The position numbers and the translations under genes were made by a program. A stretch of 20,895 bases of DNA from a virus. Its lineage: Duplodnaviria > Heunggongvirae > Uroviricota > Caudoviricetes. Positions 5,608 to 17,588 of the stretch are shown in pieces. Location: the IMG/VR virus record IMGVR_UViG_2703718846_000002, one strand, 5' to 3'. The notes below the pieces were generated by a model. That model saw nothing but the letters and a program-made list of their open reading frames with translations. It was not told the DNA's origin and did no database searches. How positions within the stretch are numbered: position 1 is the first letter of the stretch; the number at the start of each line of letters is the position of its first letter.

Positions 5608-5634
5608 AACCCGCTTCGGCGGGTTTTTGTTTTT
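5608..5634 (+). terminator. Rho-independent terminator after hokD
   Basis: AACCCGC-TTCG-GCGGGTT hairpin followed by TTTTTGTTTTT. Confidence 0.6.
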
Positions 5635-6353: not shown

Positions 6354-7403
6354 GTGCGGGTATTACTTAGACCTGTTCTGGTGCCTGAGCTTGGGCTGGT
6401 GGTCCTTAAGCCGGGCCGTGAATCCATACAGATATTTCATAATCCTCGAGTGCTGGTGGAACCGGAACCAAAAAGCATGCGTAATCTGCCATCCGGAGTC
6501 GTTCCTGCCGTTCGCCAGCCGCTGGCGGAAGACAAAACATTGCTGCCGTTTTTTAGTAACGAACGGGTGATTCGTGCTGCTGGCGGCGTTGGCGCATTGT
6601 CCGACTGGCTATTACGTCATGTTACATCCTGCCAGTGGCCTAATGGCGATTACCATCACACTGAAACAGTCATTCACCGTTATGGTACCGGCGCAATGGT
6701 GTTGTGCTGGCACTGCGACAACCAACTGCGTGACCAGACATCGGAATCACTGGAGCTGCTTGCTCAACAAAATCTGACAGCATGGGTGATTGACGTCATC
6801 CGTCACGCAATAAGCGGTACGCAGGAGCGGGAATTATCTTTGGCTGAATTATCCTGGTGGGCGGTCTGCAATCAGGTGGTGGATGCACTACCTGAGGCTG
6901 TATCGCGTCGTTCGCTGGGATTACCAGCGGAAAAAATCTGCTCGGTGTACCGCGAAAGCGACATCGTACCGGGAGAGCAGACCGCCACCAGCATATTGAA
7001 ACAACGCACAAAAAATCTTGCACCGTTGCCTTACGCCCACCAGCAACAAAAATCACCACAGGAAAAGACGGTGGTAAGCATCACCGTTGATCCAGAGTCT
7101 CCGGAATCTTTCATGAAGCTGCCTAAACGTCGCCGCTGGGTTAAGGAGAAATACACACGTTGGGTTAAGACACAGCCGTGTGCTTGCTGCGGTATGCCAG
7201 CCGACGATCCGCATCATCTGATTGGTCACGGGCAGGGCGGAATGGGAACAAAAGCACATGATCTCTTTGTGTTGCCTTTGTGCAGAAAGCATCACAACGA
7301 GCTGCACACGGATACAGTGGCATTTGAAGATAAGTATGGCTCTCAACTGGAGCTGATATTTCGTTTTATCGATCGCGCGCTGGCAATTGGCGTACTGGCG
7401 TAA
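6354..7403 (+). CDS. ydfU: YdfU-like protein with a C-terminal HNH nuclease motif
   Basis: 349 codons from the GTG at 6354 (the ORF track extends to 6315). C-terminus reads CACCGMPADDPHHLIGHGQGGMGTKAHDLFVLPLCRKHHNELH (CxxC ... DxHH ... GG ... CxxH-H-N ... H). Confidence 0.7.
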   Translation: MRVLLRPVLVPELGLVVLKPGRESIQIFHNPRVLVEPEPKSMRNLPSGVVPAVRQPLAEDKTLLPFFSNERVIRAAGGVGALSDWLLRHVTSCQWPNGDYHHTETVIHRYGTGAMVLCWHCDNQLRDQTSESLELLAQQNLTAWVIDVIRHAISGTQERELSLAELSWWAVCNQVVDALPEAVSRRSLGLPAEKICSVYRESDIVPGEQTATSILKQRTKNLAPLPYAHQQQKSPQEKTVVSITVDPESPESFMKLPKRRRWVKEKYTRWVKTQPCACCGMPADDPHHLIGHGQGGMGTKAHDLFVLPLCRKHHNELHTDTVAFEDKYGSQLELIFRFIDRALAIGVLA

Positions 7404-7416
7404 GTGGAGAACGAGC

Positions 7417-8169
7417 ATGAACCTTGAAGCCTTACCAAAATATTACTCCCCAAAATCTCCAAAATTGAGCGATGACGCTCCAGCGACAGGCACCGGTTGT
7501 TTAACAATTACGGATGTAATGGCAGCGCAGGGGATGGTGCAGTCGAAAGCACCACTTGGGTTGGCCTTATTTCTGGCAAAAGTTGGTGTTCAGGACCCTC
7601 AGTTTGCGATTGAAGGCCTGCTAAATTACGCGATGGCACTGGATAACCCGACATTGAACAAATTGAGTGAAGAAATCCGGTTACAGATTATTCCTTACCT
7701 CGTGAGTTTTGCCTTTGCTGATTACTCCAGGTCTGCGGCAAGTAAGGCTCGCTGTGAGCATTGTTCAGGTACGGGATTTTATAATGTATTGCGCGAAGTG
7801 GTGAAACACTACAGACGCGGGGAATCTGTAATCAAGGAAGAATGGGTGAAGGAACTATGTCAGCATTGCCATGGTAAGGGCGAAGCCAGCACAGCGTGCA
7901 GAGGGTGTAAGGGTAAAGGGATTGTTCTGGATGAAAAAAGAACCCGGTTTCATGGCGTACCGGTATATAAGATTTGTGGGCGTTGTAATGGAAACCGGTT
8001 TAGTCGTTTACCGACCACGCTGGCACGACGTCATGTCCAGAAGCTGGTACCAGACCTGACCGATTATCAGTGGTATAAGGGGTATGCGGACGTCATTGGT
8101 AAACTGGTAACAAAGTGCTGGCAGGAAGAAGCATACGCGGAAGCGCAATTGAGGAAGGTGACGAGATAA
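7417..8169 (+). CDS. quuQ: Late-gene antiterminator Q (phage 82/21-type)
   Basis: 250 codons from the ATG at 7417, with a GGAGA SD. Several CxxC motifs (CEHCSGTG, CQHCHGKG, CRGCKGKG, CGRCNGN). Sits immediately before a promoter and hairpin like lambda pR'/tR'. Confidence 0.8.
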   Translation: MNLEALPKYYSPKSPKLSDDAPATGTGCLTITDVMAAQGMVQSKAPLGLALFLAKVGVQDPQFAIEGLLNYAMALDNPTLNKLSEEIRLQIIPYLVSFAFADYSRSAASKARCEHCSGTGFYNVLREVVKHYRRGESVIKEEWVKELCQHCHGKGEASTACRGCKGKGIVLDEKRTRFHGVPVYKICGRCNGNRFSRLPTTLARRHVQKLVPDLTDYQWYKGYADVIGKLVTKCWQEEAYAEAQLRKVTR

Positions 8170-8200
8170 ATGATTTTTGCTGAAGATGGCGACATGATGT

Positions 8201-8229
8201 TTGCATTTTTCAAAAAATATGGATAAAAT
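8201..8229 (+). promoter_or_regulatory. Sigma-70 promoter downstream of Q (pR'-like late promoter)
   Basis: TTGCAT - 17 nt - TAAAAT, about 30 nt after the quuQ stop. Confidence 0.5.
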
Positions 8230-8274
8230 TTTTTCAACGATGGGCTTTGTATACCCGACGTTAAGAAAAAGTAG

Positions 8275-8298
8275 AAAACCCGCTGATGAGCGGGTTTT
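8275..8298 (+). terminator. Intrinsic terminator (tR'-like)
   Basis: AAAACCCGC-TGATGA-GCGGGTTTT hairpin with a T-run, about 45 nt downstream of the pR'-like -10. Confidence 0.6.
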
Positions 8299-8590
8299 GT
8301 GCTTTAAATGGGGCAATGGTAATGTTGAATCTCATCCCGGGACTCATGTCTGTTAACTTATTATTTAGCTGGTGACTTGGTTATTTGCCTGATGTTTAAA
8401 ATGTTTTCTTCCAGTACAATGTCCCTAAACACAATGAGTCTGCTTATTATATTATTAGCAGAGCTATTACGGCCAAAGTACAGCATAAGCTTTTAAAGCC
8501 AATCAACCAGTCATCAAGACAGACGGGGTTATTCATAAAAACTCTCCATGTGTGATCCGATGGGGCCTGAAATTAAAGCTTTAATATAGC

Positions 8591-8803
8591 TCATGAAAGG
8601 TAAACATTGGCAGCTGAAGGGCCACGCAGACCATTTATCCGGCAAAATTCCACGCGTAATCCGGTGGTAATTTCTTCTGCATCGCGGAGATTGAGCGCTG
8701 AAACATGAAGCTGGACATCGATACGACCATCGGATGGGGTGATAAGACCCTTGCCGCTTTTGCCGTCAAAGGTTTTGACAATTCCTGTCATTTTACGGGA
8801 CAA
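8591..8803 (-). CDS. cspF: CspA-family cold-shock-like protein (CspF/CspH type)
   Basis: 70-aa [30 protein letters not shown]...[13 protein letters not shown], divergent from cspB as in Qin. The cspF versus cspH call rests on position only. Confidence 0.8.
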
Positions 8804-9103
8804 AAAAATTCCTTAATACTGATAACTTGGCGCACTATACACACGTTCCTGAAGAAAGCTATAGTTTTTTGATGGGGTTGAAGATGGCTGGATGTCTAAA
8901 ATAAACATTGCTTCATATGTTCAACTATGCGTTAATGATTGCGTCGGTTTGAAGAACAGACGATATACGAAGTAGTTTACTAAAGCAGTTCTCATTTCAG
9001 GTGTTATTCACTTATTCCTTCTTTGAGTCTCTCCAATTAAGTACGAAGTCGTTTCTGTTATGCAAACCATTTATGCCGAAAGGCTCAAGTTAAGGAATGT
9101 AGA

Positions 9104-9319
9104 ATGTCAAATAAAATGACTGGTTTAGTAAAATGGTTTAACGCTGATAAAGGTTTCGGCTTTATTTCTCCTGTTGATGGTAGTAAAGATGTGTTTGTGC
9201 ATTTTTCTGCGATTCAGAATGATAATTATCGAACCTTATTTGAAGGTCAAAAGGTTACCTTCTCTATAGAGAGTGGTGCTAAAGGTCCTGCAGCAGCAAA
9301 TGTCATCATTACTGATTAA
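9104..9319 (+). CDS. cspB: Cold-shock protein CspB
   Basis: 71-aa [70 protein letters not shown].... The 5' UTR carries a GCCGAAAGGC hairpin before the SD, as in cspA. Confidence 0.9.
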
Positions 9320-9600
9320 AATTCATCGCTCGTCTGTATACGATAACGAAGAAGGCTGATGCCTGAGTAGAGATACGGACAGAGTAGTGAATATTGGATC
9401 TCTTTAATAAAAAGTAAGGAGGTCCAATACATGAAACAATGGCTAGCATATTTGGCAAAATCTTAATCAGGAAAAGTATGCTAACCATTGTGGTGAAGTG
9501 CAGGTTTGCTGCATGAATAGTTTTACAGCAGAAGCTAACTGCTGGCATGGCAAAACAAAGTGCGTAAGTGGATGACTCCCACAAAAAGCACCACAATCTC

Positions 9601-9623
9601 AAACCCGCTCAGGCGGGTTTTTT
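9601..9623 (+). terminator. Intrinsic terminator with the same stem as the tR'-like hairpin
   Basis: AAACCCGC-TCAG-GCGGGTTT followed by TTTT. Confidence 0.55.
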
Positions 9624-9682
9624 ATTATCTGCTTTAAATATATTATTAAAATATAAAAAATACTTGTTACTAATAAAATCAA

Positions 9683-9853
9683 TCAGGCTACAGCTTTAAG
9701 ATTTGTCTGGAATACTTTGTTGCAATGAGGGCAGATCAAAAGGGCACCTTTTTGTACTCTTGAAAAACTGTGTTCTGACTCTTGGGTGCAGTTTGGGCAG
9801 GAACATTTAACGAGATAATTACGGCGTGATTTTGAGTTTTTACGTTCTGACAT
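9683..9853 (-). CDS. Small zinc-ribbon protein, Com-like (CxxC ... SF ... CxxC)
   Basis: 56 codons from an internal Met with an AGGAAA SD: MSERKNSKSRRNYLVKCSCPNCTQESEHSFSRVQKGALLICPHCNKVFQTNLKAVA. The ORF track extends it to 9904. Confidence 0.45.
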   Translation of the reverse strand: MSERKNSKSRRNYLVKCSCPNCTQESEHSFSRVQKGALLICPHCNKVFQTNLKAVA

Positions 9854-10072
9854 AGGCTTTTCCTGTATAAATGGCCGTATACAGTACACTAAATATGAAA
9901 ACATTTCTCGTATTATTATTTTATATATGACTTTCTTTCAAAATAATTACCCACATTTTTAATGTGTATGTTTTTTTAGCGCCGTTGAGAACAACGTGTG
10001 CTGTCAAAACTACCCCGTAGACTCCGATCTTTTCAAACATATTGCACCATCCGTGTACATCGGGGTGAGGAT

Positions 10073-10288
10073 ATGAAATCAATGGATAAGTTAACAACAG
10101 GTGTTGCCTATGGCACATCGGCGGGTAATGCTGGTTTCTGGGCATTGCAGTTACTCGATAAAGTAACTCCGTCACAGTGGGCTGCAATCGGTGTGCTGGG
10201 TAGCCTGGTTTTTGGCCTGCTGACGTATCTGACAAATCTTTATTTCAAGATTAAAGAAGACAGGCGTAAGGCTGCGAGAGGAGAGTAA
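10073..10288 (+). CDS. essQ: Class II holin/pinholin (phage 21 S-type) with a dual-start motif
   Basis: 71 codons from MKSMDK... with a GGTGAGG SD. Met1-Lys-Ser-Met4 dual start and a hydrophobic core ([18 protein letters not shown]); the ORF track extends it upstream to 9998. Confidence 0.85.
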
Positions 10289-10292
10289 TCCA

Positions 10293-10600
10293 ATGACTCA
10301 AGACTATGAACTGGTTGTGAAAGGAGTCCGTAATTTTGAGAATAAAGTTACGGTAACTGTAGCCTTACAGGACAAAGAACGCTTTGACGGTGAAATTTTT
10401 GACCTGGATGTCGCCATGGACCGTGTTGAAGGAGCTGCGCTGGAGTTTTATGAGGCAGCAGCCAGAAGGAGCGTCCGGCAAGTCTTCCTGGAAGTAGCAG
10501 AAAAATTGTCAGAAAAAGTTGAGTCTTATCTGCAGCATCAGTACTCCTTTAAGATTGAAAATCCTGCCAATAAGCACGAGCGTCCTCATCATAAATATCT

Positions 10601-11628: not shown

Positions 11629-11990
11629 GGTAATATTAAATCGGAACATTTACATCGCGGAATGTAAAATTTAAATAAAAAGGACTCTTCCATGAGCCAA
11701 AATTCCTGAAATCTTAAGGGTAAGATAAAAGGTCTTAATCAGAATGACACGTTTTATTAATAAATAAAGCTATTCTTTCATTGCTGTGTTTTTCTTTACA
11801 AAAGTAATCCTTGCTATGGGTGGTTAATCATGCGTTAATGGTGTTCTGGTTTGTTACAAATTTATCTGAAGCAGTCATTGTTATAATTTTATTATTTGTA
11901 CCTCTTGAGATTTCCTTGTTGGTTTTTCTCTCTGATATTTTTTTTCGGACCATTCTGCCCAAGGGCTAATTTCTTCAAAAGGTAATAATT

Positions 11991-12203
11991 ATGTCTAACA
12001 AAATGACTGGTTTAGTGAAATGGTTTAACCCTGAAAAAGGTTTTGGTTTCATCACGCCGAAAGATGGCAGCAAAGATGTGTTTGTCCATTTCTCAGCAAT
12101 TCAGAGCAACGATTTCAAAACATTAACTGAGAATCAGGAAGTTGAATTTGGTATTGAGAACGGACCTAAAGGTCCTGCCGCTGTTCATGTAGTGGCGCTT
12201 TGA
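11991..12203 (+). CDS. cspI: Cold-shock protein CspI
   Basis: 70-aa [73 protein letters not shown]. Confidence 0.9.
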
Positions 12204-12407
12204 GGTAGACAATATTACAAACCATATTCACTTTAGATGCCCGTGTTGTCATGGTTCCCAGTATAGAACATCATCTTTTGATGTTTCTGACATGAATCCT
12301 TTCGGGGCAAAATGTATCTTTTGTAAATCAATGATGATTACATTTGATAATATTTCACAATACTTAAATGCCAGCCGTCTGTCGTTGGATTTAAAAAAGT
12401 GAAAATG

Positions 12408-17013: not shown

Positions 17014-17588
17014 TGGCATTCAGAATGAGTGAACAACCACGGACCATAAAAATTTATAATCTGCTGGCCGGAACTAATGAATTTATTGGTGAAGGTGACG
17101 CATATATTCCGCCTCATACAGGTCTGCCAGCAAACAGTACCGATATTGCACCGCCAGATATTCCGGCAGGCTTCGTGGCTGTTTTCAACAGTGATGAGGC
17201 ATCGTGGCATCTCGTTGAAGATCATCGGGGTAAAACGGTTTATGACGTGGCTTCCGGCGACGCGTTATTTATTTCTGAACTCGGTCCGTTACCGGAAAAT
17301 GTTACCTGGTTATCGCCGGGAGGGGAATATCAGAAGTGGAACGGCACAGCCTGGGTGAAGGATACGGAAGCAGAAAAACTGTTCCGGATCCGGGAGGCGG
17401 AAGAAACAAAAAACAGCCTGATGCAGATAGCCAGTGAGCATATAGCGCCGCTTCAGGATGCTGTGGATCTGGAGATCGCAACGGAGGAAGAAACCTTGTT
17501 GCTGGAAGCCTGGAAAAAGTATCGGGTGTTGCTGAACCGTGTTGATACATCAACTGCACCGGATATTGAATGGCCAGCACTGCCGTAG
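17013..17588 (+). CDS. tfaQ: Tail fibre assembly protein
   Basis: 191-aa [42 protein letters not shown]...; its start overlaps the stop of the fibre remnant (TAATG). Confidence 0.85.

Follow-up and report, generated by a model that had tools for sequence, protein, structure and literature searches.

Gene order and the Q gene of the Qin late region

The 20,895-nt stretch of DNA analysed here (the window) corresponds, by sequence match and annotation, to the Qin prophage of E. coli K-12, where the order is ydfU, quuQ/ydfT, a promoter and a first hairpin, ynfS, cspF, cspB, a second hairpin, ynfU and essQ. The genes ynfS, cspF and cspB thus lie between the two hairpins, and the lysis genes essQ-ydfR-rrrQ-rzpQ are annotated downstream, on the same strand as the promoter. 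Literature searches turned up nothing specific on a Qin late promoter. The features of the region are:

7417-8169, plus strand: quuQ/ydfT, gene of a Q-lambda-family antiterminator, annotated as ydfT/antitermination protein Q.
8201-8229, plus strand: pR'-type late promoter, with the -35 element TTGCAT at 8201-8206, a 17-nt spacer at 8207-8223 and the -10 element TAAAAT at 8224-8229.
8236-8241, plus strand: inferred start (8236) and putative sigma70-dependent pause element AACGAT (+1 to +6), placed by register with lambda.
8236-8302, plus strand: predicted 67-nt short pR'-tR' RNA, counterpart of the lambda 6S RNA (3' end from Term-seq, predicted 5' end).
8275-8298: hairpin 1, tR', AAAACCCGC-TGATGA-GCGGGTTTT (fold, conservation, Term-seq).
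8300-8309, plus strand: left copy of the flank repeat TGCTTTAAAT, 3' of hairpin 1.
8447-8536, minus strand: ynfS, a small protein gene (annotated CDS; Pfam YnfS, E = 4.7e-23), belonging to the inserted block.
8591-8803, minus strand: cspF (annotation, Pfam), antisense to late transcription.
8943-9335, plus strand: cspB (CDS 9104-9319) with its cspA-type 5' UTR (Rfam RF01766, 158.8 bits; annotation; Pfam CSD), sense to late transcription.
9392-9434, plus strand: stem-loop (9392-9429, an inverted repeat) with the dominant cspB RNA 3' end at 9432/9434 (Term-seq).
9601-9623: hairpin 2, AAACCCGC-TCAG-GCGGGTTT(TTT), also written AAACCCGC-TCAG-GCGGGTTTTTT, at the far end of the insert.
9630-9639, plus strand: right copy of the flank repeat TGCTTTAAAT, 3' of hairpin 2.
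9683-9853, minus strand: ynfU (Pfam YnfU), antisense to late transcription.
10073-10288, plus strand: essQ (Pfam PF04971), a phage-21-type holin gene with which the lysis genes of the late operon begin.

The protein encoded by quuQ matches Pfam PF03589 (E = 3.6e-54), with an additional DnaJ_CXXCXGXG match, and aligns with lambda Q over its full length at 33% identity (BLASTP, E = 2e-40). The Q-lambda structure PDB 7ubm is matched with E = 4.6e-36, and the only solved structures recovered are three Q-lambda entries (7ubm, 4mo1 and 7ubj), with no Q21 entry among the matches at E <= 0.01. Q-lambda, Q21 and Q82 each represent a family of their own, and these families are unrelated in sequence (PMC9388147). 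An earlier note on this DNA had proposed phages 21 and 82 as comparators, but QuuQ is a Q-lambda homologue and the relevant relative is lambda itself. A cassette of the Q21/Q82 type was rejected for Qin because QuuQ matches Q-lambda structures only.

Late promoter, pause element and first hairpin

A Q-lambda-type cassette is defined by a Q gene, pR', a Q-binding element, a pause element, a terminator and late genes (PMC9388147). In Qin, the antiterminator gene is immediately followed by the promoter TTGCAT-17-TAAAAT, which can be read directly in the sequence where the earlier note had placed it, after Q. Its spacing matches that of lambda (TTGACT-17-TAAATT), and the spacer at 8207-8223, which corresponds in position to the Q-binding element of lambda under the cassette definition of PMC9388147, shares 10 of its 17 bases with lambda by hand count. 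Since in QuuQ the zinc-ribbon arm of Q-lambda gives way to an insert of about 48 aa that contains additional CxxC pairs, and only those 10 spacer bases are common, the DNA site of QuuQ may differ from that of Q-lambda. Past the -10 element the agreement with lambda becomes exact: the 11-nt TCAACGATGGG is identical in the two phages from -3 to +8, at equal distance from the -10 element (TAAAAT-TTTTTC-AACGATGGG in Qin versus TAAATT-TGACTC-AACGATGGG in lambda), and includes AACGAT within the initially transcribed region, where it would act as in Q-lambda-type cassettes (PMC9388147). On this register with lambda, transcription would start at 8236.

The promoter hexamers taken alone are at chance level, a scan of the window yielding 12 promoter-like sites as compared with 11.7 in shuffled sequence, and hairpin 1 begins only 106 nt past the Q stop codon. 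Both observations would fit a reading in which no promoter is active at 8201-8229, hairpin 1 simply ends the early-right operon, of which quuQ is the last gene, and the RNA 3' end at 8302 (described below) comes from read-in. We consider that reading very unlikely. Besides the position of TCAACGATGGG, which is that of lambda pR', conservation speaks against it: among 26 distinct relatives, the block from -35 to -10 is the best conserved (98% mean column identity) and exceeds even the Q coding sequence (94%), while the pause element stands at 97%, the hairpin at 91% with variable loops, positions +18 to +39 at 74% and the post-hairpin sequence at 56%. Promoter, spacer and pause element are invariant in six aligned phages and prophages.

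Published Term-seq data provide the RNA evidence at this site. A strong 3' end at K-12 1642356 (minus strand) corresponds to position 8302 of the window, 4 nt past hairpin 1. It was recorded under each of the three Term-seq conditions, scoring about 55,000-123,000 (PMC7815308, supplementary file 1). That data set classed the end as "orphan" (PMC7815308). Its abundance in uninduced K-12 under three conditions argues against read-in, as does the report that in lysogens the late promoters of lambdoid phages fire constitutively and their transcripts are terminated (PMC7547250). It is from this downstream 3' end that we infer promoter activity at 8201-8229; the Cappable-seq and SMRT-Cappable-seq supplements list no entries near K-12 1,642,42x.

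Hairpin 1 starts 45 nt after the -10 element, the distance given in the earlier note. The segment 8236-8312 folds at -30.4 kcal/mol (z = -6.0 relative to shuffled sequence), and the pattern AACCCGC-N3-8-GCGGGTT, found three times in the window, is absent from 100 shuffles. The SfV and Ayreon records label this hairpin a terminator. Read on the minus strand, it also scores as terminator-like and is followed by TTTTCTACTTTTTC, downstream of cspF-ynfS. In K-12, only four T's precede a G (TTTT-G), the shortest T-run among the relatives, and an extra 3' end at 8470 in one Term-seq condition suggests some read-through of hairpin 1.

The region from Q through hairpin 1 is common to 35 phage records at about 90% DNA identity, including SfV, mEp460, Ayreon and Stx2c-converting phages. 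Because a Q-lambda homologue adjoins the promoter, the pause element lies in register, the unit is kept in these 35 records and an RNA ends at 8302, we conclude that the promoter and hairpin 1 constitute a genuine lambda-type pR'-tR' late cassette, in agreement with the layout that the earlier note had recognised.

Compared with the Q-pR'-6S RNA-tR' unit of lambda, Qin shares a homologous Q, a sigma70 promoter whose spacer is 17 nt long, the 11-nt TCAACGATGGG, a short terminated RNA and lysis genes downstream on the same strand. It differs in its promoter hexamers (TTGCAT/TAAAAT instead of TTGACT/TAAATT), in the position of the terminator, which lies at +40 to +63 for an RNA of about 67 nt whereas that of lambda lies near +194, and in a 1.8-kb stretch with three antisense genes ahead of the holin gene. 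The short RNA also recalls StxS, the Hfq-binding small RNA produced by pR'-tR' termination in Stx phages (PMC7547250), in that both are abundant short RNAs from a constitutive late promoter whose transcripts, in the lysogen, stop a short way downstream. However, the Qin RNA is shorter and has a poor U-tail (UUUUGUGC), the likeness is one of layout, and the poor conservation of +18 to +39 argues against a conserved pairing region.

The csp insert and the second hairpin

For most of the 35 phage records, and for many prophages of E. coli, similarity to Qin stops at 8298, the last base of hairpin 1; on the right, similarity to other phages resumes at about 10061. Unrelated cargo follows the hairpin in the four relatives inspected: SfV and Ayreon have a methylase gene there, strain NIID080884 has tRNAs and an esterase gene, and strain T43 has a hypothetical gene and a holin gene. 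The loop and T-tract of the tR' hairpin vary among relatives as well. The whole Qin layout, both hairpins included, recurs in the isolated phages 2H10, Tritos and PhiR42_1.

Morons are independently expressed inserts in phage operons (PMC2629481). The cspF-cspB block (about 8303-9600) is an insert specific to the Qin/2H10 lineage, located between tR' and the lysis genes, which supports the moron that the earlier note had postulated at tR'. An architecture census and sequence comparison found it absent from related phages that share both flanks, as is usual for lambdoid morons, and it occupies the site between tR' and the holin gene that holds other cargo in those relatives. Its own expression signals are the cspA-type regulatory 5' UTR of cspB and abundant cspB 3' ends at 9024 and 9432-9434, the latter dominant, with scores of 0.6-2.5 million at K-12 1641224/1641226 (minus strand; Term-seq, PMC7815308); no promoter activity was seen for cspF. 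In the loci examined, ynfU is linked to the csp block. Unlike other lambdoid morons, the Qin insert comprises a divergent pair of transcription units and, in addition, two small antisense genes, and the terminator at its far end resembles a copy of the phage's own tR'.

That far terminator, hairpin 2, has the 8-bp stem of hairpin 1 in all eight positions, as the earlier note had reported, with a fold z-score of -5.2 relative to shuffled sequence. It is conserved at more than 50 loci as well as in 2H10 and Tritos. Term-seq places a weak minus-strand (ynfU-strand) 3' end near it, at 9598, and lists no plus-strand (cspB-strand) end there. Hairpin 2 is not the main end of the cspB RNA, the dominant one being that at 9432-9434.

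The earlier note had taken the two hairpins for a terminator duplicated on insertion of the moron, and had named the lack of flanking homology between them among the grounds for abandoning that reading. Such homology is present. The 10-mer TGCTTTAAAT follows both hairpins in direct orientation with 10 of 10 bases identical and occurs nowhere else in the window; only 1 of 2000 flank shuffles equalled this match, and the probability of a shared 10-mer between two random 30-nt segments of the window is 6-9 x 10^-4. Direct repeats therefore extend beyond the palindromic stem at both ends of the insert. Judging from sequence, we propose that hairpin 2 and its flank most likely derive from tR' and the flank of tR' as a second copy that has since diverged, and that this copy probably arose when the csp block joined by short-homology recombination at the terminator.

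A precedent for such a joint is found in the SfV/Ayreon pair, which offers a clean empty site and filled site. Ayreon has a 680-bp insert just past tR' with a second terminator copy at its end, and the sequence after this second hairpin is the one that follows tR' in SfV, meaning that the insert lies between two copies of one hairpin; other loci also show the empty site. The proteins encoded by the Ayreon moron had no function assignable from Pfam. As in Qin, the insert sits directly 3' of the tR' hairpin and ends in a second hairpin copy, which in Ayreon includes the T-tract, after which the ancestral downstream sequence resumes. In Ayreon the loops of the two copies are identical and empty sites exist, whereas in Qin the copies are diverged and the searches described below yielded no empty site.

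This last difference bears on the main competing explanation, that of an independent origin: hairpin 2 would be an intrinsic terminator in its own right, used by cspB and, on the opposite strand, by ynfU, its stem would simply be of a common type, and nothing would have been duplicated. The weak ynfU-strand end at 9598 would suit it. The same stem also occurs a third time, after hokD at 5608-5625 in an unrelated context, so that the stem alone must be regarded as generic; the loops of the two hairpins differ (TGATGA in hairpin 1, TCAG in hairpin 2), and so do their T-tracts. No csp-less empty site (Q, pR' and tR' followed by ynfU) was found in 5,426 E. coli genomes, searched with a synthetic junction query, or in IMG/VR and the GTDB representative genomes, searched with exact gapped patterns, a pattern search whose positive control gave at least 120 matches. 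An apparent boundary at 9591 was rejected as an empty site, representing an IS1 insertion or deletion. Neither hairpin belongs to an Rfam family, and the sub-threshold isrK and Trp_leader matches that both share, which could be cited for two unrelated terminators, reflect generic terminator shape. Against independence, however, stand the exact TGCTTTAAAT, which is found 3' of these two hairpins only and not beside the hokD hairpin, and the SfV/Ayreon cassette, which does gain inserts bounded by a second hairpin copy. Taken together, we regard an independent origin as unlikely, though it retains appreciable weight. The duplication claim of the earlier note thus stands in part, with the direct-repeat flank and the SfV/Ayreon precedent on its side and the missing empty site, the third stem, the differing loops and the main cspB RNA end at 9432-9434 against it.

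The symmetry of the insert raises another possibility, an inverted duplication in which both csp genes arrived with 3' UTRs and terminators homologous to each other, hairpin 1 being primarily the terminator of cspF and standing after Q only by coincidence. Stop codon and hairpin are 293 nt apart for cspF and hairpin 1, and 282 nt apart for cspB and hairpin 2. The loops share TCA in inverted orientation, GTGCTTT matches, hairpin 1 scores as a minus-strand terminator, and an Hfq-CLASH chimera contains a cspF-strand fragment (8318-8354). Yet hairpin 1 occupies the same position in csp-less relatives, which largely refutes the idea, and the chromosomal cspH-cspG pair resembles only 8595-9218. The two 3' UTRs are dissimilar when one is inverted (score 16, null mean 18.1), and the flank match in inverted orientation falls short of significance (p = 0.08), in contrast to the direct one. 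Lacking inverted similarity between the 3' UTRs, the model was rejected, and we hold it to be extremely improbable.

A probable lambdoid late switch with a moron behind its terminator

The whole of 7417-10288 is likely, as the best explanation of these data, to be the late-gene regulatory cassette of Qin, with a moron directly behind its terminator. Qin is a defective prophage, which we count against this explanation. Sigma70 RNA polymerase would start from the promoter at about 8236 and meet the AACGAT element, where it would pause. Without Q, it would terminate at hairpin 1 to give the 67-nt RNA, whose 3' end is the one recorded by Term-seq. By homology with Q-lambda, QuuQ, once made, would load at the paused complex and render the polymerase resistant to terminators. 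The resistant polymerase would then cross hairpin 1, ynfS-cspF in antisense and cspB in sense, and continue through the 9392-9429 stem, hairpin 2 and ynfU, again in antisense, into essQ-ydfR-rrrQ-rzpQ. The route through cspF and cspB had been predicted in the earlier note, and the architecture, which is the same in 2H10, Tritos and PhiR42_1, supports it. In the lysogen, hairpin 2 would also keep transcription from the cold-inducible promoter of cspB out of the lysis genes.

A wider reading, which we think decidedly doubtful, would make the tR' hairpin a portable recombination joint, so that short-homology recombination between hairpins of the tR' type would bring morons in and remove them. In K-12 both strands of the hairpin would be in use, one ending the constitutive 67-nt pR' RNA and the opposite one ending a cspF 3'-UTR RNA associated with Hfq. 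If it were true, each acquired moron would arrive insulated by a terminator, and the 67-nt RNA or the cspF 3'-UTR RNA might regulate in the manner of StxS.

The late-gene switch of Qin is real but has an ordinary lambdoid-phage layout; it is an uncharacterised example of a well-known kind and leaves the understanding of Q antitermination unaltered. It fixes where late transcription is expected to start and stop in Qin and in the live phages 2H10, Tritos and PhiR42_1, and it accounts for the abundant "orphan" 3' end at K-12 1642356. The promoter, pause element and terminator also matter for Stx2c-converting phages, whose genomes contain the same cassette. The cspB and cspF genes, often seen as ordinary host cold-shock genes, sit inside a phage late operon, so that induction of the prophage would yield sense transcripts of cspB and antisense transcripts of cspF. 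Finally, the repeated terminators of Qin and Ayreon offer a small example of how the mosaic joints of lambdoid phages can form at short conserved sequences.

The lambda-type late cassette of Qin

Over 7400-10300 the window matches the Qin prophage region of E. coli K-12, and that of many further strains, at 100% identity. A K-12 derivative annotated in RefSeq has the Qin gene order relBE, hokD, rem, ydfU, ydfT, ynfS, cspF, cspB, ynfU, essD/essQ, ydfR, rrrQ, rzpQ, cspI.

Genes around the late promoter, from RefSeq annotation and Pfam matches
7417-8169, ydfT (quuQ), antitermination protein Q (Pfam Q)
8447-8536, minus strand, ynfS, a 29-aa gene (Pfam YnfS)
8591-8803, minus strand, cspF (Pfam CSD)
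9104-9319, plus strand, cspB (Pfam CSD)
9683-9853, minus strand, ynfU (Pfam YnfU)
10073-10288, essD/essQ, phage-21-type holin (Pfam)

The promoter described in the earlier note (TTGCAT, 8201-8206; 17-nt spacer; TAAAAT, 8224-8229) can be read directly from the sequence, as can its two hairpins, hairpin 1 (AAAACCCGC-TGATGA-GCGGGTTTT, 8275-8298) and hairpin 2 (AAACCCGC-TCAG-GCGGGTTTTTT, 9601-9623). The hexamer match alone carries no weight, because our scan found 12 promoter-like sites where shuffles predict 11.7. The hairpin pattern has 3 matches in the window and 0 in 100 shuffles, and folding relative to shuffled sequence gave z = -6.0 for hairpin 1 and z = -5.2 for hairpin 2.

QuuQ aligns end to end with lambda Q (33% identity, E = 2e-40), and a search of solved structures gave a match to 7ubm, a Q-lambda entry (E = 4.6e-36). 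It is a Q-lambda family member rather than a Q21 or Q82 protein, and the cassette is not of the 21/82 type proposed earlier for comparison. It differs from lambda Q by an insertion of ~48 aa (residues about 123-170) with additional CxxC pairs and a Pfam DnaJ_CXXCXGXG match, which replaces the single zinc-ribbon arm that in Q-lambda contacts the Q-binding element. Lambda pR' reads TTGACT-17-TAAATT-TGACTC-AACGATGGG and its Qin counterpart TTGCAT-17-TAAAAT-TTTTTC-AACGATGGG; the 11-mer TCAACGATGGG is equally far from the -10 element in the two promoters, and includes AACGAT, which in lambda pR' is the -10-like, sigma-dependent pause element. Lambda transcription starts at the first A of AACGAT, and by register with lambda the Qin start would be 8236.

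Window positions equal 1,650,658 minus the K-12 coordinate, a conversion built on K-12 gene coordinates and confirmed by the sequences printed at 3 separate entries of the Term-seq table. MG1655 Term-seq (Adams et al. 2021, PMC7815308, supplementary file 1) records a strong minus-strand 3' end at 1642356 under each of its three growth conditions; its flank ...GCGGGTTTTGTGC|TTTAAATGGG places it at 8302, 4 bases past hairpin 1. By this evidence uninduced K-12 makes an abundant RNA ending at hairpin 1, and the RNA from pR' to tR' is predicted to be 67 nt long (8236-8302). It fits the behaviour of lambdoid late promoters, which are constitutive and terminated in lysogens (PMC7547250). Another plus-strand 3' end at 8470 (K-12 1642188, minus strand), listed in one of three conditions (PMC7815308), follows a stem at 8440-8461 and suggests that hairpin 1, with a T-run of only TTTT-G in K-12 (five T's in phage 2H10, seven in SfV), is read through to some extent.

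On the opposite strand, published Hfq-CLASH data contain 20 hybrids between hspQ mRNA and a 'cspF' fragment, ACAGACATGAGTCCCGGGATGAGATTCAACATTACCA, which is 8318-8354 on the minus strand, immediately before hairpin 1 when read in the cspF direction; published RIL-seq tables include an RNA named cspF.ydfT.IGR. Hairpin 1 may be the terminator of an Hfq-associated cspF-strand RNA as well; Term-seq has no 3' end there on that strand.

Averaged over 26 distinct sequences out of 82 related loci, column identity stands at 94% for the Q 3' coding region, 98% from -35 to -10, 97% from +1 to +17, 74% from +18 to +39, 91% in hairpin 1 (stem kept, loop variable) and 56% beyond it. The segment from Q through hairpin 1 is common to 35 phage records and many E. 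coli prophages at about 90% identity, and in most of them similarity ends at 8298, the last T of the hairpin. SfV, mEp460, Ayreon and 15 Stx2c-converting phages are among these relatives; in those inspected the cargo 3' of hairpin 1 is unrelated, and the SfV and Ayreon records already annotate its counterpart as a terminator.

Together the promoter and hairpin 1 form a pR'-tR' cassette of the lambda type. It has the testable features that define the Q-lambda type (PMC9388147): its Q is homologous, its promoter is conserved, the pause element is in register, the terminator has a 3' end in vivo, and lysis genes lie downstream. The Qin sequence, its genes and even the 3' end at hairpin 1 were already public, and we found no description in the literature that assigns the Qin pR', pause element or tR', or that mentions the repeated terminator copy. 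The Qin cassette is an uncharacterised representative of a well-known type.

A lineage-specific csp insert

Set against phages with this Q cassette to the left and a phage-21-type holin to the right, the whole stretch of approximately 8303-10060 is peculiar to the Qin lineage; its layout, both hairpins included, recurs in phages 2H10, PhiR42_1 and Tritos. Inserts between tR' and the holin gene were also seen in related phages examined. The csp block (the cspF-cspB insert between the hairpins) is 99-100% identical between Qin and 2H10 (8210-10060 compared; 8570-9050 without differences), whereas the adjoining Q region is only about 91% identical, a disparity which indicates that lineages recently exchanged the pR'-csp segment. 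About one third of the related loci carry a variant with a 259-bp deletion (8343-8600) that removes ynfS and the cspF C-terminus; the isolated phage Tritos and E. coli MSI001 and TUM14759 are among them. ynfS and intact cspF are thus dispensable.

The chromosomal cspH-cspG-ymcF-ymcE-gnsA locus (L011, 1491-2768) mirrors Qin cspF-cspB ... cspI-ymcF-ynfR-ynfN-gnsB (window 8595-9218, 11991-12203), with a cspH-cspG DNA similarity of about 77% that ends mid-cspB. It looks like what is left of a Qin-like prophage whose lysis cassette was lost when cspB-like and cspI-like genes recombined. A similar break occurs in viral locus L048, at 9271. Distant from the pR'-csp region, the window has a full-length Rfam match to IS009 (RF02111, 221.5 bits; 17356-17554, plus strand).

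Origin of the second hairpin

The earlier note read the csp block as inserted in the tR' region with duplication of the terminator, arguing from stem identity. That argument is weak alone, because the same stem recurs 3' of hokD (5608-5625, AACCCGC-TTCG-GCGGGTT then TTTGTTTTTATTTT) without the TGCTTTAAAT flank found at the other two; the shared stem shows a recurrent terminator type in the prophage. The duplication itself gains from that flank, a 10-mer that follows both hairpins in direct orientation (8300-8309 and 9630-9639) and is otherwise absent from the window. Of 2000 shuffles, just 1 aligned as well as the direct 30-nt flanks, and two random 30-nt window segments share a 10-mer with a probability of 6-9 x 10^-4.

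There is also a precedent. Ayreon has a 680-bp insert 3' of its tR' hairpin that ends in a second hairpin copy with the same loop, CACTGA (L007, 3860-3879 and 4537-4556), followed by the sequence found directly after tR' in SfV, and the exact empty site, with a single copy (L006, 3860-3879), exists in SfV and several IMG/VR loci. The 37-aa and 141-aa ORFs of the insert have no Pfam match. Ayreon is an unambiguous case, in the same cassette, of an insert bounded by terminator copies. Against duplication in Qin, the two hairpins differ in loops and T-tracts, and searches of 5,426 complete E. coli genomes, IMG/VR and the GTDB representative genomes turned up no empty csp site; a positive control gave at least 120 matches. 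On balance, we lean slightly towards hairpin 2 being a duplicate of tR'. Short-homology recombination at the terminator would be the likely mechanism; homologies of a few tens of bases suffice for Red/RecT-type phage recombinases.

An inverted duplication of csp gene plus terminator was rejected, because relatives that lack the csp genes still have hairpin 1 and the two 3' UTRs are not similar when aligned inverted. The inverted-orientation flanks of the two hairpins do not match significantly (p = 0.08).

Transcription across the csp block

To reach the lysis genes, late transcripts of a cassette that worked like lambda's would run antisense through cspF, sense through cspB and antisense through ynfU. 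cspB has its own cspA-type 5' UTR (Rfam RF01766); a second cspA-type thermoregulator match lies over cspI (11845-12230). In Term-seq (PMC7815308), cspB RNA ends prematurely at 9024 and dominantly at 9432/9434, just past a stem at 9392-9429. The 3' arm of this stem holds a strong AGGAGG, 6 nt ahead of the ATG of an unannotated 11-codon ORF (MKQWLAYLAKS, 9431-9466), and more stem-loops come next, at 9436-9491 and 9498-9514.

Few transcripts reach hairpin 2 in Term-seq at 37 degrees; the table lists no cspB-strand 3' end there, and has a weak one at 9598 on the opposite (ynfU) strand (PMC7815308). Hairpin 2 is kept in >50 loci and in 2H10. Most economically, it would be the far terminator of a moron (an independently expressed insert in a phage operon), keeping cold-inducible cspB transcription from the holin-endolysin genes in the lysogen, while Q-modified polymerase would ignore it.
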